A stretch of 64,000 nt of DNA from an uncultured Planctomycetaceae bacterium (GTDB lineage Bacteria; Planctomycetota; Planctomycetia; Planctomycetales; Planctomycetaceae). The stretch is from assembly GCA_963813715.1 (NCBI GenBank), contig CAWFAK010000009.1, positions 672,001 through 736,000 on the forward strand, read 5' to 3'. The notes below the pieces were generated by a model. The model saw only the letters and a list, made by a program, of their open reading frames with translations. It was not told the DNA's origin and did no database searches. Of this stretch, positions 2,310 to 52,355 are shown one piece after another (the first letter of the stretch is position 1; every line of letters begins with the position of its first letter). Made by a program: the position numbers and the translations under genes.

Positions 2310-4157
2310 TCAGAGAATGCCATGCAACGGCCCGCCGGGCGCCGCGAGTTGATCGACACTCTTGCTGACGGCCGGATCTTCGACCAGCGGCGGTGCGTGG
2401 TGCGGCTTGAGCCGCGCGTCGATGATCGAGCGATCCGCGGCAGCCCCAATGTTTGTCGCGGACAAAACTCCCGATGCCGTGCGACGTCGGCCGCCGGGTT
2501 CGAGCGGGTGAACGTCGTCCAGAGAAAGTTGTTCAGCGAGCCGCTCGCGAATTGGCTGTCGTCGACGAGCACCACGAGCGGAAAGGCGTTGAGCGGATGG
2601 TTCGCGTCGACGGCGGCACACAATCGCGCGACGGCCGGCTCGATCTCGCCCTCGCCGCGAACGAACGGCGGAGCGTCGAGTCGCCAGGATGCCCGGCAAG
2701 CAGAGCCGCGGGTTCGCGAAACCGTCGGGCAGACGCAGTTCGGGCGGAACGCTCGTCGGCAGCGGGCGGCGCGGCGGGCCGGCAGCGGCGATCACCAGTT
2801 TCGAGCCGGCGTTCAGTTCGCCGCTGGTGTAGTCGAGCGTGTCGATCGTCGTGCACGTCTGAAAGTGCAGGTCGGTCGTCCAATCGACGCGGGACAAAAC
2901 GTGCGCGAAGAACGCGGGGACGTCATTGATGTCGAGCTGCGGATCGTCCTCTTGAGCGGCGATTAGCAGATACTTGGCGAGCGACAGTTGCCCCTGGCCG
3001 AGAATGGCGTTGGCGTTGGTCAGCAACTCCTGCGGTTTGCGGCGGCCGGCATACGGGACGTAGCGCTCGCTGCCGATCGCCAACAGGAGCGGATGCACGC
3101 CGGCCGCGTCGACCGCGTGGACCGCGTGCACGCCGGGGATCACCGTCGGCAGAATCGGCCCGGTGAGGTCGTGGATCAGCTCGCCGAACGACGTGTCCTC
3201 CTGCGGCGGCCGGCCGACGACGGTGAAGGGCCAGATGGCGCCGGGCCGGTGATAGACGGCATCGACGTCGAGCACCGGAAAATCGTGCGCCAGACTGTAA
3301 TAGCCGAGATGGTCGCCGAACGGGCCTTCGGGCAAAACTTTCTGCGGGTCGACCGTGCCGCTGATGCAAAAGTCGGCCTCGGCATAAATCGGGCAGCTGA
3401 CCGGTCGCGCGAGATCATCGGAATCCGTCGGCCGGCCAGCGCCCCGGCGAACGTCAGCTCGCTCAGCCCCTCGGGCAAAGGCATCACGGCGGCGAGCATC
3501 ATGGCCGGCGTGCCGCCGACAAACACGTTCACGCGCAAGCGGCTCGCCGCGGCGAATGGCCGCCGCGTGATGCACGCCGATCGAGCGGTGGATCTGATAG
3601 TGCAGGCCGACCTGCGCGATTGGGAACGTATTGTCCGCCCGACAGCTGGATGCGATACATGCCCAGGTTGGACTGGGCGAAGCCGGGCCGGTCGGGATGC
3701 TCGGTATAAACCTCGGGCAGCGTGACGAACGCGCCGGCATCACGCGGCCAGTTGACGAGCTGCGGCAACTGGTCGATCGTCGTGCGGTTTTCCAGCACCG
3801 GCCCACGGCTCACGCGCTTTGGCCGCATCGTCCAGAGGGCGGCGGGCACGCCCCGATAGTGCCAGGGGCGTTTCCAGGCGTCGGCCGGATCGATTTTGAG
3901 CGCGATCAGTCGCCGAACGGCCTCGAGCGTGTCGCGGAACAGGAAACGGGTCCGCTCCCGCGTGCCGAACAAATTGCTGACCATCGGGAAGCGGCAACCC
4001 TTGACCCGTGCATAAAATAGAGCGGGGCCCTGCCCTGGTACACGCGGCGCTGGATCTCGGCCGCTTGCAGATGCGGATCGATTTCGGTTTCGATCCGCAC
4101 GAGCTGGCCGGTGCGTTCCAGGTCACGGACGCACTCTTGCAGGTTGCGATAGCCCAT
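2310..4157 (-). CDS. UbiD-family (prFMN) decarboxylase; several frameshifts
   Basis: MGYRNLQECVRDLE start, NLGMYRIQ, EGPFGDHLGYY, GRPPQED and DARLKPHHAP motifs spread across ORF fragments. Confidence 0.9.
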
Positions 4158-29173: not shown

Positions 29174-32100
29174 TCAAGCTCCAAACCAATGGTCGGCCTC
29201 GGCTACAGCTCCGACCGGCGCGACCCGCGTGGCGACAAGGCGTCTACACTTCTCCTTAGCTTGGCCGACAAGTTCAATGGGATAGTGATCGCAATTCTCG
29301 ACGACCTCTTCAGCAACCGCCTTCGGGATTCGCTGCGCTCGCAGCATAGTTGAATACGCATAATTGAAATAGCCGTCCCGTCTTGCTCCCTTATCGTAAC
29401 TGTTGGCCAACACGGGCAACCACGCCTTTGCTGTCGTCCTGTCCTTTTCAATTGCACGAAGTGCGACCTCCTGACAGAAGCCCAGCGTTGTCGGGTCGGC
29501 GCCGTCGTAAGTCGATGCAAGCCGCTCTCCAAGTGCTAGCGTGAGGTCGGGCGCGCGAAGGCTCAGCAGTATGATCATTCTGTCTGACATTGTAGCCGGT
29601 AGCACTTCGGCGTTCAGCGCTATCGCCCTCCGCCCAGTTACCCCGCTAGTGCCAAGAGCTCCGCACCCAGCGATTATCCGCTCCCACCAAGCGGAGTCCA
29701 CTCTCACGAGCATTTCATCTATTTGAGTACAAAGCCGCTCGATCACACTACCCCCCGCCCATCCGCCCAACATGAGCAGCACATGCGCCCTTTGCAAAGG
29801 GGTCCGCGCGTCCGCTAGCTGCCTCTCCCACCAAGACGCCGACCCAGCCCGAAGTCGCGCATATCGGGCCCGCCGGGCCAGCGGCACAGTCTCATCGAAG
29901 AGATCGCGAGCATCGTCACACGTTTCCTCTTTGGACCGGATTCCCGCTCCTACGCTTGCTAGTTTGATAAACGCCCACCGCTCTCCAAAACGCGCTCTTC
30001 CACCTTCCACGAGTTCCTGCCACGGACCGATTCGCGTTGCCCATTCGCCGGGAGGCCGCCGGTCCAGTTCGACGCTCAGCGCGACTACCTCTGCACATCT
30101 CCGCCCGGCCGCATACGCTCCACAACCTTCCGATAGCCACTTAGTTGGATCCGTCGCGTACTCGGGACTGTAGCGCTGCCACACAATACCGGATGCCCGC
30201 TCATCGCCTCCGAGCATATATCGGTATACCGCCCACACTTGGCCAAATGCGCTCAAAAGAGATTGCCCTTGCGTCCCCACATATTCTTCTGCCGAATCCA
30301 ATATATAATCAACAACTGCCTGAAAGCGGCTCTCTTTCGCCTCGACGAACTTGCTCTGGCCACCCCGGTCTAAGAACGATAAACGTTCCGCCACGTCCAC
30401 TGGGTCGGAGGCCATTGCTTCAAGCTCCGCGTCGGTTAGCAAGTCAAGTATTCCCAGGTGCCACCCGTAGCGCATCCACACCGTCTGACTGCTGCTTGCA
30501 AGACCAGCGCACGCCCCATACCACTGATCTCTTGCTTCAGCAGGGGTTGCATTTGCGCGCCATATCTGAACAAGCATTGCGCCATAGTCGCAAGGCTGCG
30601 AGTCTCGCAACAAAGAGACGCTTCGAGCAACAACCTCCTCCCTTCCACTCTGCTGTGGTAGGACGAGCAGCTGTCCCCCTCTATGGGAGCGCGCTACAGC
30701 ACTCATGTGCCTTAAGCCTGGCCCGTCAATTATCAACGCTACGACTTGTTTCATAGAGCGCGGATGCTGCGCGAACACCCAATCGGAAAGAAGGGTCGTT
30801 GCAAGTAGTTGCGCGTGACTTGTGGACTTATACCCTGGTGAGCGCGCCAGTTCTTCAAGACGATCAACGAGGGACGGCAGTTCGCCCTTGCTGTAGTCAG
30901 CCCGCGTAAAAGCGCGTTACGTTCTGCCAGAAGAAATCCCTTGCCAGTGCGTCGAATCTATCAGGCAGCGTCCCAGCACGTTCACCGCCGGGAGGCGAGT
31001 ATTGAGCGGTGTTATAGAGATGCCGCGCGGCAAAATATTCGCGGAGCGGCTGTACCTCGAATTCATATGTTCCTTCGACCCGCGATACCAGAGCGACGAC
31101 GCGCTCGACAAGCCCGGTGAACAGCGTATGCGCAAGTGCAACATTGTGCCCTTCGAAGGACAGATAGTGCGCCACAAGGTCATGCAACCGCTGAGCGCTT
31201 ACACTGCCTCGCGTCTGTTTGGTTTGGGATTCTGATTGAAGGATCCAAGCTAAGTAACGATGGATGTCCAAGAGCAGGTCACGATGGTCGCGGACGACTG
31301 TCGACTTCTCTGCCTCGCGATTAAAGAATAAATCCACGTAACTGTCGTACAGCGACGTTCGTTTGTCAGGTAGAGAGCCGCCTCGCGTTTGAATAAGGCT
31401 AAGCAGAATCGCTAGCTGCATCGGATTGCGTGCTAGCTCACGTAAATGAGGCTAGTCGACTTTGTCACGAAGGATGCGACGGACGTCGGCGGCTTCTTTT
31501 CCGTCGAGGCGACGCGCCCGGAGCCATTTCTCTGCATATTCGTCAATTAGAGGGCGCGTAATCGAGCCAAGCTGGATGTATGTGAAAGTAAGCTCCGACA
31601 GCCCTGGTGCGTTTGCAAAGGCCGCGGGCCGACTTGTAACGATTGTTTGGAGAGATGCCGCGAGTTTGCGCAGCCGATTAACGCCGGTGGCGATTGCGTC
31701 GACCACTTCCTTACGGCTTTGGATATCCGCGACTTCGTCGAGCCCGTCGCAGACCAAGAGGAGCGCACTGATCCGGGCGACGGCTTGAAGATCGGAGACG
31801 CTAAAAAGGGAGCCGCCGGAATAATGGGTTATGTGCGCTGCAAGGAACGACTCCAATGACTTATGCCACCCTTCAGGCGCAGGTGCGTTGTCGTCGGGAG
31901 CGAACGGGTTGCGTTGGTCTAACCAGACCGCGAGATCTCTACAATCAAGCTTGATGGGAAGTCGAACGGAAGTTGCGCGCGTGGGAGACCGGGTGCCTTC
32001 CCCCTCTGAGGAATCCCCCAGAAGTTGCGTTCGATGAATTTGACAGATGTATTGAACAACGGTGGATTTTCCCTGGCCGGGGGCGCCCTCGAGGACGACA

Positions 32101-32906
32101 CACGGCAGGTTTGCCTGCGCGAGCGGATGCAATAACAGGCGGGCGGCACCGATCGCTTGCTCTCGCCCGGGGAAGGCGTGGTTGCCGAGTGATCGCGCAA
32201 CCTCGCTGATAACGCTCATGTGAGTTGCCCGCCACCGAGTAAGCTCCGACGGCACCAAATCGATGGGGACATCAACGAATAGGTCAAGCAGTTTGTTTTG
32301 GAGCTCGACCTGCTTGAAACGAACCTCGGTGTCGCGTGCGAATTGATCTCTCACATACGCCCTAATGGCTGTAGTGCGGCGCTCGGCATGCTCGCCCAGA
32401 CCCTGTTCCACGATTAATCGGAGTATGTCGGTCCCACGGAGAATTTCGGGATAAGACCACTTGATATCCCATGCATTATCGAGACGTCGGTTGATGTCGT
32501 CGCGCCACCAGCATTGTCCTGGAATTGGAAGGTGCTCGTCGAGAATGGACTGTACGGAGTCAATCGAACCTGCATCTGGATAGGCGGTGCCAGAGATGTT
32601 GGTAAGGAGGTAATACTGCTTGGCTCCCTTGGGAATCAATGACCGTACTTTAGGAGCCTCCTCTTGAAGCAGGGTTCGCAACTTGCGATGTGGGTCTATT
32701 TCTGTTTGAGGGTTCTGGACGAATTTCATCTGGTAGACAATGAAATCCTCGGCGTCGCCGTATGGAAACAGAGTGGTGGCGTCTCGACCTCCATCACGCT
32801 GCCCAAGTGGAAAGCACTGCGTCTTTGGAAACGCCTTTGCTAAGAGTGCTTGACAGACTTGTTGAAAGCGATCCGGGCCGAGTTGCTCAAGGAGATAGTC
32901 CATCAT
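29174..32906 (-). pseudogene. Nuclease-NACHT/STAND NTPase (about 1240 aa), interrupted by an in-frame TAG and a +1 frameshift
   Basis: N-terminal DGGRD...VYQMK, Walker A GAPGQGKS, Walker B LLVCDGLDE, VTSRP, NPMQL; TAG at 31452-31454, extra base near 30897; lower GC than flanks. Confidence 0.85.
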
Positions 32907-33411
32907 GTTGCGTCTCTCCCGGCGTTGTGCCTGTTCCGTGGAGTAGCTAAAGTGCTCCCGCGGCAAATCGGTGATTCCAGGATCGTTGCAGGCACGAACA
33001 GCGTGCTAATGCGGTGGAAAAGGGGTGCTCAGTGGGCTGCAGATGGAACGTGCCGGCAACGAAGGTCAAAACGGCAGATGGTTGAGTAATGGCGGTGCGC
33101 GTTGAATATGGAAACGAGATGATTGTTACGAGAGCAGTCGGAAAGTGCAAAGAAAAAAAGGCACGGTAAGAAGACCAGCTTCCACTTGGCTAATCGATCA
33201 CCCGCAGCATAATTGGATGTAGTTCCGAGCCGCAGGGCCGGAAGGCGTGGTCCAAGGTCCATGGTCGGCCGAAGGCGGCGCTACGGAGAAGGCCGAGTCG
33301 GGAGCCGAAGGCGGGGCCGAGAAGGGCTCGGGGCGAAGTCGGGAGCGGACAGCGGGTGGCCGGTGGGGATTAAATTCCCGCCACGGACGAAAAAAACGCC
33401 CCCGCCGGGGT

Positions 33412-33597
33412 GGGGATCCTTTTTTCACACAGGGGAGAAAAAGATCCCCGCGCGCGGGACAAGTGGTCCCGCCGGGTCCGCCTAAAAGTGGTCCCGCCGG
33501 GACGGGACCGCCTAAAACTGGTCCCGCCGTGACGGTACCCTCACATTTCACATAAGGGGGGCGCCGAAAAGTGGTCCCACCGTAGAGTGTCCCACCG
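33412..33597. repeat. Iteron-like repeat block with hairpin
   Basis: TGGTCCC(G/A)CCG at 33464, 33489, 33519, 33572; GGGGATC...GATCCCC inverted repeat at 33412-33449. Confidence 0.75.
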
Positions 33598-33652
33598 GTC
33601 AGCGTCGATCCGGCTGAGCGGCGATCCGGCCCGCCGCTCCGGGCCAACGATC

Positions 33653-34507
33653 GGGACGGGACACGTTCGGTCGAGTCCAAGGTCGAAGATCCGCCGAAGG
33701 CGTGGTCCAACGTCAATGTCCAAGGTCGGAGGTCAGATGCCCGCAATCCTGACTTTGGACTTCGGACCGCGGGGACTTTGGACTAACGCCGGGACGGGAC
33801 ACGTTGTTTCACCGAGAAAACCCCGGAGAAATTGCGTCAGGCCAGACGTGAAACACCAAGAAGACGAAGACGTTGAACAGGAGGTAACAGAGTGAACAGA
33901 GACTGGAATCGATTGATTTCTCTGTTACCTCTGTTTCCTCCTGTTCAAAATCTTTTCGTGCTCAATCGTTGCGTCTTCGTGCCAAGGACACCAATCGGCC
34001 CATCGAGACTTAACTTGGTGCTCTTGGAGCCTTGGTGGTTAGAGATCCGGGTTCAGTCCAATCGGGACACGGGACGGGACAAGTTGTTTCACCGGGAAAA
34101 CCCCGGAGAAAATCTGCCCTCACCCCGGCCCTCTCCCATCCGCCGAGCGGACGGGCGAGGGAGCCGCTTGAGTCTGCCCCACCCTGCGGTGGGGACGGGA
34201 CGGGACACGTTGTTTCACCGGGAATACCCCGGCGAAATTGCGTCAGGCCAGACGTGAAACACCAAGAAGACGAAGACGTTGAACAGGAGGTAACAGAGTG
34301 AACAGAGTCAGACAGACTGGAATCGATTGATTCCTCTGTTACCTCTGTTTCCTCCTGTTCAAAATCTTTTCGTGCTCAATCGTTGCGTCTTCCTTGCCAA
34401 GGACACCAAGGCAATTTGGATCGGCCCACCGAGACTTAACTTGGTTCTTGGAGCCTTGGTGGTTAGAGATCCGGGTTCAGTCCAGTCGAGACACGGGACG
34501 GGACAAG
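33653..34507 (+). repeat. Array of ~41-bp GGGACGGGAC... repeats separating hairpin-rich spacers
   Basis: Full repeats at 33791, 34071, 34197; partial at 33653, 34495; 33791-34083 is nearly duplicated at 34197-34507. Confidence 0.9.
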
Positions 34508-34531
34508 CCGCTCGCTCGCTAGAATGACGGC

Positions 34532-34780
34532 ATGAGCGACGAACCGAAGAAACCGGACGTGAAGCGAATCGGCCGGCTCTGGGGCTTGCCATCCCCCGTC
34601 GCAATCGTTGCCGTTATTTTGGGGACCGTCGCCGGACTCGCCTGCGTCTTTTCCATCGACTTCCTCGGGATTCCGTACACTCTGGCCGTTAGTGTGATCT
34701 CGGGAGCCGTCGGCGGAATTATCCTAGGACTCTGCCTCAGACGTTGGCCCCCAAGTGGACTGAAAAGTCGGCGCGCTTGA
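34532..34780 (+). CDS. Small two-TM hypothetical protein
   Basis: 82 aa, two hydrophobic helices. Confidence 0.55.
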   Translation: MSDEPKKPDVKRIGRLWGLPSPVAIVAVILGTVAGLACVFSIDFLGIPYTLAVSVISGAVGGIILGLCLRRWPPSGLKSRRA

Positions 34781-34978
34781 CCGTCGCAAAACTCCCGCGC
34801 CGCGCACCAAGTGTCGTCCAGGACGCGGCGCTCCCCCAGACTCACGACAAACCGCCTGCCGCGTCGCGGGCATAAAAAAATGAAAAAATATTGGCATTTT
34901 AGGAGGGATCAATTTAATCTGAACAAAAGTTGGGCCTAAACGGCTGTTCCACCGGACATTCGCGGGAGTGAGGCGGTC

Positions 34979-36550
34979 ATGGCAGAAAAACGAATTGGGT
35001 TCGGTCTGGCTTTTGTGGGACGCTTCCTGGTCGTCTTCGCCGGCCTGGCCTCGGCGTCGCTGGCGTCCACCGTGGGCAACGAGGCGGAGACGATCCTCAC
35101 GAGCATGCGCAAGGCCGCGGGGAGCTCGGCGCTCAAGCAGCAAACGGGCGACGTGTTGATTCGCGGACGATCGACCGAATCCGGCTCGCCCGCCGAATTC
35201 AGCTTGCACTTCACGTCGGGCGACCGGTTCCTGGAAATGGTCGAAGGCCCGCTGGGCGAAACTCGCGGCTGCAACGATTCCGGCTGCTGGAAGTTCGACC
35301 GATCGGGTGTGTCGCGGACGCTCGAGCTTTCCGACCGGGACGGTTGCGAGCTGCTCACGCGAATTCAAACCGGGCAATGGCTCGCCAACGTTGATATCAA
35401 GAATGTTCTTGTGGCCGCGAACGAAGGCGATCCGCGGACCGCGATCCTCCACGTGCGCCAGGGACGCCTGAAGGCCCGGCTTTCCGTCAATCGCTCGACC
35501 TGGCTGCCCGAGAGCCTGGTCTGGAGCGATATCGCCGGCGAGCATGTCTGGACTTTTCGCAGCTTCCGCGACGACCTGGGCTGGAAGGTGCCGGCGACGA
35601 TCGCCGTGACGACGGCGGGGAAACCGGACGGGACTTATGAAGTGAGCTCGGTCTCCCGCGAGTCCGCCAATGCGACGAATTATGACCGCATCGAGAGCAA
35701 GTGGGACGGCGTCCATTTCAATTCAAAGTTGTCGTCGCGGCTGGATATCAAACGGGACAAGATGGGGCAGCTCCTTGTCCACCCGAAAATCGACGGGCAG
35801 AGTTTGGGATGGTTCGTGTTCAACACCGGGTCTACTGTCACGATGTTGGACGCGGCTACGGCCGCCCGGCTGAAATTGACGCCAGTGACGTCGGTTTCCA
35901 CGATCTCCCCCTTCGGCACTCGCCAGGCGTCGCTTGTTCGAGGGACCTCGCTTGAACTCGGTCCGGTGAAGATCGATAAGCCGTTTCTCGTGACGTCGGA
36001 CCTGGCGATGGTCCAGGCCGCGCTCGGCAAAGATGTGGTCGGCTTCATCGGATACGACCTGCTGAGCCGCTGCGTTGCCCAGATCAATCTCGGGGAGAAT
36101 TCCATTCAGCTTTATGACCCGCAGACGTATCGGCTCGCGGCGGGACACTGGCAGAAGCTGGTCTTTGACTCGGACATTCCCGTGGTGCAGGCGAAGTTCG
36201 ACGGCGGCGAGGGGTTCTTTCGGCTCGACATCGGTGCCACCGGGGCCGCGAGCAACGTGGTCTTTAACACACCGATCGTGGCGGATCTCAAGCTCCTGCA
36301 GGGCCGGAAAGTGAAGGACGTCCAGCTGGCCATGAAGCGTGCCTTGCAGGGCAGGATTGGTTGGTTCGAGCTGGGCGAGCACCGGTTCGGGAACCCGAAC
36401 GTCGTCTTCGCACTCGATACCCAGGGGCCGTTCGGAGACGAATTCACGGCAGGCAACCTGGGTGTCAACTTCCTGCGAGTGTACCGCATCGTGCTGGATT
36501 ACCCGCACGAACGCGTGGCGCTCGTGGCACCTCGCAAAGCCAAGAAATGA
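34979..36550 (+). CDS. Exported protein with two retropepsin-like (aspartyl protease) domains
   Basis: WFVFNTGS...GFIGYDLL and FRLDIGA...GNLGVNFL; signal peptide. Confidence 0.75.
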   Translation: MAEKRIGFGLAFVGRFLVVFAGLASASLASTVGNEAETILTSMRKAAGSSALKQQTGDVLIRGRSTESGSPAEFSLHFTSGDRFLEMVEGPLGETRGCNDSGCWKFDRSGVSRTLELSDRDGCELLTRIQTGQWLANVDIKNVLVAANEGDPRTAILHVRQGRLKARLSVNRSTWLPESLVWSDIAGEHVWTFRSFRDDLGWKVPATIAVTTAGKPDGTYEVSSVSRESANATNYDRIESKWDGVHFNSKLSSRLDIKRDKMGQLLVHPKIDGQSLGWFVFNTGSTVTMLDAATAARLKLTPVTSVSTISPFGTRQASLVRGTSLELGPVKIDKPFLVTSDLAMVQAALGKDVVGFIGYDLLSRCVAQINLGENSIQLYDPQTYRLAAGHWQKLVFDSDIPVVQAKFDGGEGFFRLDIGATGAASNVVFNTPIVADLKLLQGRKVKDVQLAMKRALQGRIGWFELGEHRFGNPNVVFALDTQGPFGDEFTAGNLGVNFLRVYRIVLDYPHERVALVAPRKAKK

Positions 36551-46399: not shown

Positions 46400-47149
46400 C
46401 TAACAATTCGTCCGAATCTCGTCCAGAGGCCATTTTTCACTCAAGATTTCCCGTTGCCGTGCCGTCAGCTGGGCGATGGCCTTCCGGGCCGCCTGCACCT
46501 GCCGCTCGAGCAAATCCGGGGAAAACGGGCGTCCCTCGGCCGTCCCCTGCACTTCGATGAAGTCGCCAGCGCCGGTCATCACCACGTTAAAATCGACCTC
46601 GGCCCGCACGTCTTCGGAATAGTCCAGGTCGACCAGCACCGCTCCATCGACGACGCCGACACTGATCGCCGCCACGCTGTTGACGATCGGCAGTCGGCCG
46701 CCGGCGAATTTGTCGCGGATCGAATCGAGCGCGTCGACCAACGCCAAAAAGCCGCCGGTGATGCTCGCCGTTCGCGTGCCGCCGTCGGCTTCCAGGACGT
46801 CGCAATCGACGGTCACGGTTCGCGGCCCCAGCGCCGCCATGTCGACCGCCGCCCGCAGGCTGCGGCCCACCAGCCGCTGAATTTCCTGGCTGCGACCGTC
46901 GATTTGTCCACGCTCCCGCTTTTTGCGCGGGGCCGTGCTGCCGGGGAGCATGCTGTACTCGGCGGTCACCCAGCCGGTGGGGTTTTCCTCTTTGGCCTTC
47001 CAAGGAGGGACCGCTTCGTCGACGCTGGCCGTGCACAGGACGGTGGTGCGGCCCGCCTGAATCAGCACGCTGCCGGGCGCTCCGCCGGTGAAGTGCCGCC
47101 GCACGGCGAGCGGCCGCAGGGCGTCGGGCCCGCGGCCGTCACGTCGCAT
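46400..47149 (-). CDS. rph: Ribonuclease PH
   Basis: [47 protein letters not shown]. Confidence 0.96.
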
Positions 47150-48291
47150 GATCGGCCCCCCAGCAACCACACCAACAGCCCCTTCGCCAGGTGCATGCGG
47201 TTTTCCGCCTGTTGAAAGACGATGCTTTGCGGCCCGTCCAGCACCTCGTCGGTGACTTCCAGGCCGCGTTTGGCCGGCAAGTCGTGCATGAAACGGGCCG
47301 ACTTGGGAGCGGCCGCCATCAGCGCGGCATTTACCTGGAACGGTGCGAAAACCTTTTCCCGCGCCGCGGCCTCCGCTTCCTGCCCCATGCTGGCCCAAAC
47401 GTCGGTGTAGACGATGTCGGCCTGCTTGACCGCACGGAAAGGATCGTCGACAAGCTCGACGTCGGCCGTCGGAAAGTCGCCGCCGCACCTCCCGCAGAAA
47501 AGCCGTCGACAGCTCGTAGCCGCGCGGCGAGCAAAACGTGATGGGCATCTTGGCGTAGGCGGCCGCCATCGCCAGCGAGGCGGCCACGTTGTTGCCGTCG
47601 CCGACATACACAATCCGCACACCGGCCAGCCGTCCGCAGGCTTCCTGGATCGTGAACAAATCGGTGAGGGCCTGGCACGGATGCAGCTCGTCCGACAGCC
47701 CGTTGACGACCGGGCAACTGGCGAGCCGGGCAAACTCTTCGATCAGCGACTGCCGAAACGTCCGCATCACGATGGCGTCGGAATACGCGCTGAACACGCG
47801 TGCGACGTCGGTCAATGATTCGCGACCGTTGAGTCCGGCGTCCTGCGTGCTAAGAAACACGCTGCCCCCGCCGAGCTGGATCGCCGCCGCCTCGAAACTG
47901 TTGCGGGTCCGCAGCGAAGGCTTTTCAAAAACGAGCGTCAGAACGCGCCCTTGCAACAGAGGCGGACGATCGCCGCGGGCGTGCCGCCCCTTCAAATCGG
48001 CCGCGATCGCCAGGATGGCTTTGACGTCGTTGGGTGCCAGATCGAAGACCGAGGTCAGGTGCCGCGGCCGACCCGACTCGCGCGCGTTCGCCGCCGCACT
48101 CTTCCCTTTGGATTTGCGGCCCGCCGCACTCGTCGGCGTGTGCGCCGCTTGAACAGTGGACTTTCGCAGGCGCGGGCTTTGGCCGTTCGTTCCGGCGCGT
48201 GGCTGGTGGAGGCCTTCGCCTGTCGCAGGCGGATGGCCGCGGCCGACTTGCCAGATTCCGATTTTCCCGGGCGGGGACGATCAGCTTTCAT
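47140..48291 (-). CDS. argF: Ornithine carbamoyltransferase; frameshifted, both ends uncertain
   Basis: [40 protein letters not shown]. Confidence 0.9.
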
Positions 48292-50477: not shown

Positions 50478-50803
50478 CCCCGACTCCGACCCGCCAGACT
50501 TCGGGCGATCTGCCCGGCCTGTGCGATCTGGTGGAACTCTGCACCGCGGCTGACTTTCCGCGACTGACCAGAAAACGATCCAGACGGGGCGTCTGTCCGC
50601 GTCTGCCCAAAGAGGGAAACCCCTGATTTTAAAAGGACTTGCGGGGAAGTCAACGAGCCGCAAGTGAACCGACACGTGGGCCCCCGAGCCGGGGTTAAAT
50701 GCCTTGGGGGGAGCACGTCGGCGCCGTCGGGCGGCGCTGCGCTTCGTCCGTTCGCCCGGTAAGATGCGGGTCCCCCGCTCACCCGAGGATTTGGAGACTC
50801 CGC

Positions 50804-52355
50804 TTGAAGATCGCTTCGATCGTTCCGTCGCTCGTGCTGTTCGGGTCGCTCGTCGGCGTCGCCTCGGCCCAGCAAACGAAGAGCGGGCCGGCTGTCCCGA
50901 AAACGGGCGCCGGGCCGAACGCAGCCTCCGCCTCGAAGTCAGGCGCCGCCCCCGCCTCCCGCCCCAACATTCTGGTGATCGTCGCGGACGATCTCGGCTA
51001 TGGCGAGCTGGGCTGCCAGGGTCACAAAGACATTCCGACGCCGCACATCGATTCGCTCGCTCAGAACGGCGTGCGATTCACCTCGGGCTACGTCTCCTGC
51101 CCCGTCTGCAGCCCGACCCGCGCCGGCTTGATGACCGGGCGTTATCAGCAACGCTTCGGCCACGAGTTCAACCCAGGGGCCGGTCGACGAGGCGGCCAAC
51201 AACTTCGGCCTCGTCCGCGACGAAAAAACCCTCGCCGAACGGTTGAAGGCGGCCGGCTACGCAACCGGGATGGTCGGCAAATGGCACCTGGGCACCAAGG
51301 AAGGACTGCGGCCACCCGAACGCGGCTTCGACGAGTTCTTTGGCTTCCTCGGCGGTGCGCATCCCTACCTCGGCGAGCGCCGGCGGCGCAACATCGAAGT
51401 CATGCGCGGCACCCAGCGCGTCACGGAGTCCGCCTACCTGACCGACGCCTTCGGCCGCGAAGCCGTGGCTTTCATCGACCATCACAAGGCCGAGCCGTTC
51501 TTCTTATATCTGGCGTTCAACGCGGTGCACGCCCCCCTGCAAGCGACGGCCGACTATCGGAAACGCTTCCCGCAGGTCAAAGACGAAAAGCGGCAGACCT
51601 TTTCGGCCATGCTCTCGGCCATGGACGACGCGATCGGCCACGTGCTGGACACGCTTCATAAGTCGCAACTCGAGGAGAAGACGCTGATCTTTTTCATCAG
51701 CGACAACGGCGGTCCGACTCCGCAGACCACCTCGCGCAACGACCCCCTCCGCGGCACGAAGACCACCACCTGGGAAGGCGGCATTCGCATCCCGTACATC
51801 ATCCAGTGGAAAGGGCACGTGCCAGCCGGCAAGGTCGACGATCGTCCCGTGATCGCCCTCGACATTCATCCGACGGCGCTCGCGGCCGCCGGCGTCACCG
51901 CCCAGCCGGAAAAACCGCTCGACGGCGTCAACTTGTTGCCGTTTCTCGACGGCGCCGCGACCAGCGTGCCTCACGAAATTCTCTTCTGGCGATTCGGCAA
52001 CCAGATGGCCGCCCGTAAAGGCGATTGGAAGTTGACCCTGGCCGCTCCGCGTCCCCCCGCCGGTTCGCCGGCCGCCGCACTGGAAGACGACCCGCGCCCG
52101 CGAGCCGGACGCCGACGCCGGCCCGCTCGCAACGCGACGGCCCAGCTCTACAACCTGGCCCAGGACATCGGCGAGAGCAAAGACCTGTCGGCCGAGAATC
52201 CCGACAAGGTCAAAGAGCTGAAAGACGTCTGGGACAAGTGGAACGCCGAGCTGATGGCCCCGCGATGGGGACGAGCCAACCCAAGTCCGCCCGCGCAGCC
52301 CGGCGCCGCAATCGAACTGAAGCGGTGCCGGCGAGTTCACCAACCCGAAGCGTGA
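50804..52355 (+). CDS. Formylglycine-dependent sulfatase; frameshift near 51180, 3' end uncertain
   Basis: [27 protein letters not shown]. Confidence 0.93.

Follow-up and report, generated by a model that had tools for sequence, protein, structure and literature searches.

Among the interspersed repeats of bacteria, the mosaic elements of Neisseria (Neisseria intergenic mosaic elements, NIMEs) form dynamic arrays in which, in the description given in PMC1797815, dRS3 delimiters flank more than 100 families of ~50-150-bp units; these arrays hold insertion sequences (IS), and dRS3, a 20-bp unit with the terminal inverted repeats ATTCCC-N8-GGGAAT, is a site of phage integration. The bacterial interspersed mosaic elements (BIMEs) of enterobacteria are built of repetitive extragenic palindromes (REPs) that, as presented in PMC2817692, alternate in orientation, and REPs are described in PMC3733652 as known IS targets that have been credited with roles in mRNA stability and termination. 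NIMEs and BIMEs are the closest known kinds to the repeat array studied here, which occupies positions 33400-34560 of a 64,000-nt stretch of DNA (the window) from an uncultured bacterium of the Planctomycetaceae. General REP surveys do include planctomycetes, as PMC3733652 indicates; a literature search that did not extend to supplements returned no description of such arrays in these bacteria. A preliminary description of the region had seen in it a Cas-less repeat-spacer array and proposed either a modular structured-RNA locus or a repeat-delimited system that gathers REP-like units, as a candidate for an undescribed system. We consider it probable that the region is a local cluster of genome-wide, lineage-specific, non-coding intergenic mosaic repeats, in which an oriented delimiter, GGGACGGGA(CA), punctuates modules of 40-350 nt that are mostly hairpins of the REP or miniature inverted-repeat transposable element (MITE) type.

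The repeat of ~41 nt from which the preliminary description set out is a composite, namely the delimiter (D) and a leader of ~30 nt (H), together the head, fused to several different hairpin bodies. The true punctuation is a 9-11-nt asymmetric direct motif and not the 41-nt repeat: GGGACGGGA(CA) stands at the borders of heads, of the GTCCAAG-type hairpins (module A) and of many further hairpins alike. The 9-mer of the delimiter was found at 549 sites in the genome to which the window belongs (G000, an assembly 82.6% complete), against 52 for the reversed control, and these sites fall into 192 clusters, 90 of which have at least two sites and together hold 447 sites over 35.9 kb. Such arrays are strictly co-oriented in 89/90 cases; the largest has 25 delimiter sites and is partly a delimiter minisatellite. 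The 245 inter-delimiter segments have a median length of 121 nt (5th-95th percentile, 41-346) and group into 173 families at 70% coverage, mostly hairpins, the largest being the head with the CCCTCACCCC hairpin (H and module C; n=20) and the GTCCAAG/CTTTGGAC hairpin (n=12). Gene context was taken from a crude caller based on the GC content of third codon positions (GC3), which yields 4807 genes and 68% coding sequence. Arrays are intergenic in 89/90 cases, and convergent gaps hold 36/88 of them, compared with 17% of all gaps longer than 100 bp. The genes beside the other arrays are of ordinary kinds that have nothing to do with one another (kinases, FGE-sulfatase, AAA_25), and the arrays showed no connection with surface-antigen genes.

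The head itself is dispersed in the same manner. Its 24-nt core has 95 matches in the G000 genome at up to three mismatches (54 forward, 41 reverse) and the reversed pattern none, and a profile built from the three local copies gives 99 nhmmer matches in 49 clusters (21 singles, 12 pairs, 12 triples, two of four and two of five), 48 of a single orientation and one mixed. Over 169 distinct head copies positions 1-27 are nearly invariant and the remainder is variable. A 13-mer of the H core, used for orientation, was found 197 times against ~166 expected by chance on our own estimate, and any signal was swamped.

At the locus itself the basic observations of the preliminary description hold. A 42-nt direct repeat is present three times, the second and third copies being 95% and 93% identical; its first 16 nt (CGGGACGGGACAMGTT) recur as stubs at 33652 and 34494 (81-100% identity), and the stretches between repeats measure ~122, 238, 84 and 256 nt. 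The second and fourth of these are copies of one another (112 nt at 97%, 79 nt at 99% and 62 nt at 97% identity), so that there are three spacer types, each with an inverted repeat: GTCCAAG/CTTTGGAC units, the AACAGGAGGTAACAGAG hairpin (twice, with arms of 35-36 nt that are 86% complementary) and CCCTCACCCC.../GGGCGAGGG. Direct repeats in one orientation with intervening sequence do bear a superficial likeness to clustered regularly interspaced short palindromic repeats (CRISPR), and an orphan, Cas-less adaptive array could be imagined. However, the spacers proved to be dispersed repeats themselves, every type having 2-24 further genome matches, and one of them is present twice; spacing is irregular both locally (~84-256 nt) and over the genome (69-358 nt from head to head, IS-bearing gaps aside); 21/49 loci are single repeats; and the 3' third of the repeat is poorly conserved. 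Cas1 (PF01867) has 0 matches in the assembly, the control being positive in 7/14 genomes, and a domain scan of 50 open reading frames (ORFs) of the window, those of at least 170 aa or flanking the array, found no cas, integrase, recombinase or transposase domain, which bears out, for these ORFs, the earlier statement that the window has no such gene. None of the CRISPR properties tested was found, and we give an adaptive array next to no probability.

How the family is distributed among relatives was assessed in 41 genomes, of which one is that of the window, 11 belong to its genus, 13 to further genera of the family and 16 to other families of the class. Head copies number 95 in G000, 73 in G002 and 1-3 in three genomes, and the remaining 36/41 have none. 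The delimiter 11-mer is abundant in 7/12 genomes of the genus (215, 144, 274, 285, 266, 68 and 45 sites), with three or fewer in the other five; outside the genus there are at most 12, mostly within a few of the reversed control and somewhat above it in G022 (11 vs 6) and G037 (12 vs 2). Because the delimiter spans a sub-clade of the genus and the head is abundant only in G000 and G002, the delimiter system is the older of the two, and H is a young module found in bulk in these two sister species only. The arrays of three genomes that lack the head (G003, G006 and G009) keep the co-oriented grammar of delimiter and module, with other leaders in place of H.

Between the sister species the arrays differ by whole modules. 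Comparison was made by delimiter-based segmentation, pairwise MAFFT alignments being partly unalignable. The orthologous locus of G002 has the order P, D, D-H-C, D, D-flank, and its right flank matches that of G000 at 94.6% identity over 3511 nt; P is a further dispersed module to the left, kept in both. The local order in G000, D-A, D-H-B, D-H-C, D-H-B', D, thus has three additional modules (A, H-B and H-B'), each accompanied by one additional delimiter; module A, a member of the 12-member segment family, and module B are both missing from G002. A second orthologous array has a shared module order, with an additional H-C in G002 between two delimiters. Four further orthologous loci, compared by a heuristic alignment of modules, have 12 segments in common, 18 in G000 alone and 5 in G002 alone, all of them bounded by delimiters, and one orthologous locus is near-identical save for a 36-nt hairpin and one 7-nt unit. 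The suggestion that the repeat delimits a collection of REP- or MITE-like units was a fair account of the architecture, and modules do turn over between relatives; what it described is no discrete locus or system, given 49 loci of which 21 are single copies, and in place of an undescribed system we find one of ~90 clusters of a genome-wide family. Nor is the repeat confined to this place, since the search of its own genome and of relatives returned many loci with turnover of spacers.

Public sequence data bear on the structure of the local array. Soil metagenome contigs show a joint 34065->34490, with 424 nt fewer (run X2), and a joint 34492->34195, with an extra B' unit (run X10). An assembly duplication could in principle have produced the local triple repeat: several window genes look frameshifted, such as a sulfatase split over 50699-52355, and no public contig spans the array, the contigs of four metagenome runs included. 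Against this, contigs of two independent runs cross the junction of B with head 2 (33928-34100) with 1-2 mismatches, B and B' differ by real substitutions and indels, and arrays of this kind are found at 48 further loci and in G002, so that an artefact is extremely unlikely. In two metatranscriptome libraries, available as contigs only, depth over the neighbouring genes resembles that of the DNA runs.

Arrays are also targeted by IS elements. All ten head-to-head gaps longer than 1 kb contain transposase ORFs, which belong to three IS families. Of the five complete copies of a DDE_Tnp_1 (IS4-like) element, four lie between two direct copies of the exact 11-bp delimiter, and the element may point either way; the fifth has one of its two delimiters inverted, which recombination between IS copies would produce. 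The ends of this element (AATGGCACTAA) are found 11 times in the genome, all at IS copies. An IS110-family (DEDD) element of ~1.28 kb has nine copies of 93-98% identity (e.g. C5:1086650, C16:500668 and C17:775757), 8/9 at the same position of CCCTCACCCCGRCCCT in C modules and 6/9 just after a head; both junctions carry CT. Elements of the IS110 family typically have a CT core. A guide RNA may direct this element to its target, a REP-like site. An rve (IS481-like) element sits in a third module.

The working that we propose for the family is that the modules are non-autonomous DNA: delimiter sites would receive copies of them or lose them, always in the same orientation, and each gain would duplicate the delimiter. 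The arrays would then be reshuffled via recombination and slippage between delimiters, and would serve as landing pads for IS elements. This accords with what was observed, namely one delimiter for every module difference, the fixed orientation, an IS that duplicates this very 11-mer, polymorphism of unit number and slippage. On this proposal the differences between G000 and G002 would be gains or losses of modules, some enzyme would have copied them, and they would have no host function. The copying enzyme may perhaps be sought among the HUH/Y1 (RAYT-like; RAYT, REP-associated tyrosine transposase) transposases of the genome, which we name as tentative candidates. The G000 genome has 8 Y1_Tnp genes, and several have multi-copy repeats close on both flanks, with BLAST depths of ~25 copies for y1, ~22 for y2, 15-23 for y5 and 89-106 for y6. 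From their sequences, y6, with a ~30-nt palindrome upstream that is inverted downstream, and y1 look like REP-RAYT-type pairs. One of the bodies fused to the head (GAAGCACC..CAGCTGA..GGCTCGCC) looks similar, when compared by eye, to the repeat beside the Y1 gene at C7:398229-398888. As an observation apart, the Y1 (RAYT-like) gene at C5:265677-266291 is flanked on both sides by a ~30-nt palindrome (GGTGGCACTGGCGG...CCGCCAGTG) with ~90-106 genome copies, an arrangement that looks like a REP-RAYT pair.

Several observations weigh against this proposal. No enzyme could be tied to the delimiter or the head among the 8 Y1 genes, the window ORFs and the array neighbours; none of the 8 Y1 genes is flanked by heads, the nearest heads lying ~2.0 and ~2.4 kb from two of them, and Y1 genes are present in 12/12 genomes of the genus, including the five that lack the delimiter. 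A gain is indistinguishable from a loss, as an 'empty' site would equally result from recombination between two delimiters. Heads are without terminal inverted repeats, and the right ends of modules are unconserved. The fixed orientation of H and A relative to D, together with the absence of inverted ends, speaks against ordinary DDE transposition and favours single-strand HUH or site-specific chemistry, or recombination alone. A test of replication strand by GC skew gave 12 of the same sign and 15 of the opposite sign under a very weak skew. The assembly being 82.6% complete, an autonomous parent element could have been missed. Finally, by the crude gene caller, arrays are co-oriented with the upstream gene in 60/88 cases (p = 8e-4), which could mean a function in the 3' untranslated region (3'-UTR) and not junk. 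A search for an autonomous parent with the head as its end met no such element: the only long repeats beside heads belong to the three IS families, which are unrelated to one another, and to a small number of host genes with paralogues (kinases, FGE-sulfatase, AAA_25).

Recombination alone would dispense with transposition altogether. The delimiter would then be a site prone to slippage and recombination, and modules would move by ectopic homologous recombination, gene conversion, unequal crossing-over and replication slippage. The delimiter minisatellites at C17:898566-899277 fit such a process, as do the variation of GTCCAAG unit number between species, the unit-count joints in metagenome contigs, the arrays at synteny breaks between G000 and G002 and the one IS copy with inverted flanks. 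It is hard to explain in this way, however, how a module family comes to lie at 12-20 or more loci bounded by 9-11 nt of homology, and the swift increase of the head to 73-95 copies, seen in just two species, is left unexplained; we consider the explanation unlikely, although it is the alternative to which we would give the most weight. With regard to the synteny breaks, of 41 loci examined in G002 several connect sequences that in G000 lie on different contigs or far apart; at L048, L069, L073, L083 and L085 an array coincides with a synteny breakpoint or a contig join between the two species (for example, C17:554522 is joined to C17:536480, and C12:209580 to C7:998744).

Another possibility is that the delimiter is the core site of a dedicated, orientation-specific recombinase, and that the modules are cassettes exchanged via circular or linear intermediates, as in integrons or as hypothesised for dRS3 in NIMEs in the account of PMC1797815. 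Co-orientation in 89/90 arrays, exactly one delimiter per module gained or lost, the limitation of the delimiter to a sub-clade of the genus and the use of the site by integrative elements all accord with this. No recombinase was found in the scanned window ORFs, though, the neighbours of arrays are unrelated ordinary families, and no candidate enzyme emerged; we would therefore hold this to be improbable. A bolder version, on which we would place similarly little weight, is that one sub-clade of the genus would have a recombination system of its own, specific for orientation and similar to NIMEs or integrons, with GGGACGGGACA as its core site; this system would assemble hairpin cassettes into co-oriented arrays that act as landing pads for IS elements and for strain-specific islands such as the NACHT gene described below, and so drive genome rearrangement. 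If this were true, the enzyme of the GGGACGGGACA system would be among the HUH or other recombinases of the lineage.

The modules might instead be parts of a transcribed, modular non-coding RNA locus, as small RNAs or as 3'-UTR elements whose hairpins act in mRNA stability or termination. The co-orientation of arrays with their upstream genes, the enrichment in convergent gaps and the hairpin nature of the modules would suit this, and the internal stem TTTCACCGGG/CCCGGAGAAA pointed out in the preliminary description does exist in the head consensus. Its pairing over 169 copies, however, is no better than expected from column composition (0.70 vs 0.67 and 0.76 vs 0.72), so that the head shows no covariation; RNAalifold returned no consensus structure for it, and the mean folding z-score was -0.43. 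An Rfam scan of 32500-35500 gave one match, to a plant microRNA model and below threshold (26.5 bits vs a gathering score of 96), and no terminator-like site was found within 33650-34510. The window array moreover lies in a divergent gap, upstream of a + strand gene, as an exception among arrays, and turnover between close relatives is fast. The structured-RNA locus earlier suggested accordingly finds no support here, and we regard an RNA function of this kind as very unlikely. The region does not appear to encode protein either. Contrary to the statement that no continuous ORF is present, three ORFs (102, 121 and 89 aa) run across the array; with a GC3 of 0.49-0.63, compared with 0.79 for the neighbouring gene at 34979-36550, they are without the signal of real genes here, and the array is therefore not coding. 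What these comparisons remove is a false lead, as this is not an undescribed Cas-less defence or RNA system.

The features of the local array are listed in the table. A BLAST depth profile against the G000 genome shows that the whole of 33400-34560 is dispersed repeat between single-copy flanks, with the head reaching a depth of 74, module A lying at 5-16, B at 2-15, C at 7-24 and P (33400-33635) at 9-23. The array has seven delimiter sites, including one inside P at 33499 and one at 34192 that is provided by the 3' end of module C, GGGGACGGGAC. The tandem repeat of P lies at 33473-33539 with a period of 30, and in the copies of module A inspected the orientation relative to D is the same.

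Features of the repeat array in the window (D, delimiter; H, leader)
Feature	Position	Strand	Description
Module P (dispersed)	33400..33650	+	GGGGATCC...GATCCCC hairpin; 30-nt tandem of GTGGTCCCGCCGGGAC-type palindromes; TTCACATAAGGGGGG
Delimiter D (CGGGACGGGACACGTT)	33652..33667	+	'Truncated copy' of the preliminary description; placed at 33653 in the delimiter listing
Module A	33668..33789	+	Hairpin, GTCCAAG units against CTTTGGAC units; 24 BLAST matches genome-wide
Head 1, D with conserved leader H (GTTGTTTCAYCGRG...)	33790..33831	+	nhmmer 53.9 bits
Module B	33832..34069	+	Long hairpin AACAGGAGGTAACAGAG/CTCTGTTACCTCTGTTTCCTCCTGTT (36-nt inverted repeat, 86% complementary), then CCAAG/CTTGG-rich tail
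Head 2, D with H, AAG variant	34070..34111	+	Sole head at the orthologous locus of G002
Module C	34112..34195	+	CCCTCACCCCGGCCCTCTCCC ... GGGCGAGGG hairpin; 7-24 genome matches per position
Head 3, D with H	34196..34237	+	Found by repeat and profile searches
Module B'	34238..34493	+	Second B copy with small indels; blocks 97-99% identical to 33832-34069
Terminal delimiter D (CGGGACGGGACAAGCC)	34494..34509	+	Adjoins unique flank; same D-to-flank junction in G002

To the left of the array, a 504-aa ORF (31452-32966, - strand) carries a NACHT/AAA_16 domain and has an atypical GC3 of 0.60. The gene named as a defence-like neighbour is thus confirmed in its domain, and the adjacency is not conserved: at the orthologous locus of G002 the left flank holds a different gene, perhaps transposase-like, and the ORF is missing from the four metagenome runs that hold the right flank, in all of which 31500-33300 is uncovered. 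The ORF has the appearance of a strain-specific island attached at the repeat array.

A few further observations were made in passing. Module P, which recurs ~17-20 times, has at 33400-33460 terminator-like hairpins with T-runs on both strands (CCCCGCCGGGGTGGGG followed by T6, and the complement); such hairpins in the P region are not above shuffles (4 vs 2.6 +/- 1.6). The minisatellites on C17 mentioned above comprise ~10 units of GGGACGGGAtcggtt (14-15 nt) and 13 units of GGGACGGGActgggacacc (19 nt), flank a REP and are G-quadruplex-prone; 62/418 canonical G-quadruplex motifs in the genome contain the delimiter, which is suggestive at most. Just beyond the terminal delimiter (34513-34555) is a 21-mer, CCGCCGCTAGAATGACGGCAT, with 27 recurrences at up to three mismatches, which lie immediately next to the start codon (ATG) of different small ORFs; two loci of G000 (C5:1499341-1504057 and C15:102103-105943) have it in runs of four and six, and four congeners have it too. 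The TAGAAT found 6 nt before the ATG at these sites looks like the -10 box of leaderless mRNAs. Elsewhere in the window, genes seem disrupted or fused at 50699-52355 (the sulfatase, in two overlapping ORFs), 46400-47995 (OTCase and RNase PH domains in one ORF) and 2310-3806 (a truncated UbiD), which may be due to indel errors of long-read assembly.

The array was set against several known kinds of repeats. As regards REPs, modules A, B and C are intergenic hairpins, and the stem of the head is without covariation support; as regards MITEs, module A has inverted arms and is bounded by direct delimiters, and heads have no inverted repeats. As regards non-autonomous elements of the IS200/IS605 type (palindrome-associated transposable elements, PATEs), orientation relative to the delimiter is fixed, and the strand counts of 12 and 15 were obtained under a very weak skew. 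Integron cassette arrays differ in that no integrase or recombinase domain was found in the scanned window ORFs and that 90 loci are involved rather than one platform. REP doublets forming hairpins (REPINs) are inverted REP pairs beside a single RAYT. The lineage-specific bursts of short non-autonomous repeats are like those of the REPIN-RAYT system; the heads here, however, are direct and unpaired (48/49 clusters and 89/90 arrays co-oriented) and not linked to a RAYT. With the BIMEs and REPs of enterobacteria and pseudomonads, as portrayed in PMC2817692 and PMC3733652, the arrays share high-copy intergenic palindromic units that form mosaics with other short motifs and are targets of IS elements, and this genome also carries Y1 genes with multi-copy repeats on both flanks; the differences are that all units here are co-oriented, that no RAYT is flanked by the head, that the head is no supported palindrome and that there is no sequence relation. 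From NIMEs, as far as these are characterized in PMC1797815, the arrays differ in their asymmetric delimiter of 9-11 nt, which is always direct, in having no sequence relation, in belonging to another phylum and in showing no link to surface-antigen genes. The likeness lies in a short delimiter, many unit families, intergenic arrays that hold IS elements, unit numbers that vary in syntenic arrays and a delimiter that is an integration site of mobile elements, and the copying mechanism, should it be found, would have a bearing on the unsolved formation of NIME-type arrays. A soil bacterial genus thus carries NIME- and BIME-like mosaic arrays built on an asymmetric, strictly co-oriented delimiter of 9-11 nt, with fast turnover and specific IS targeting, and these arrays lie at synteny breaks.

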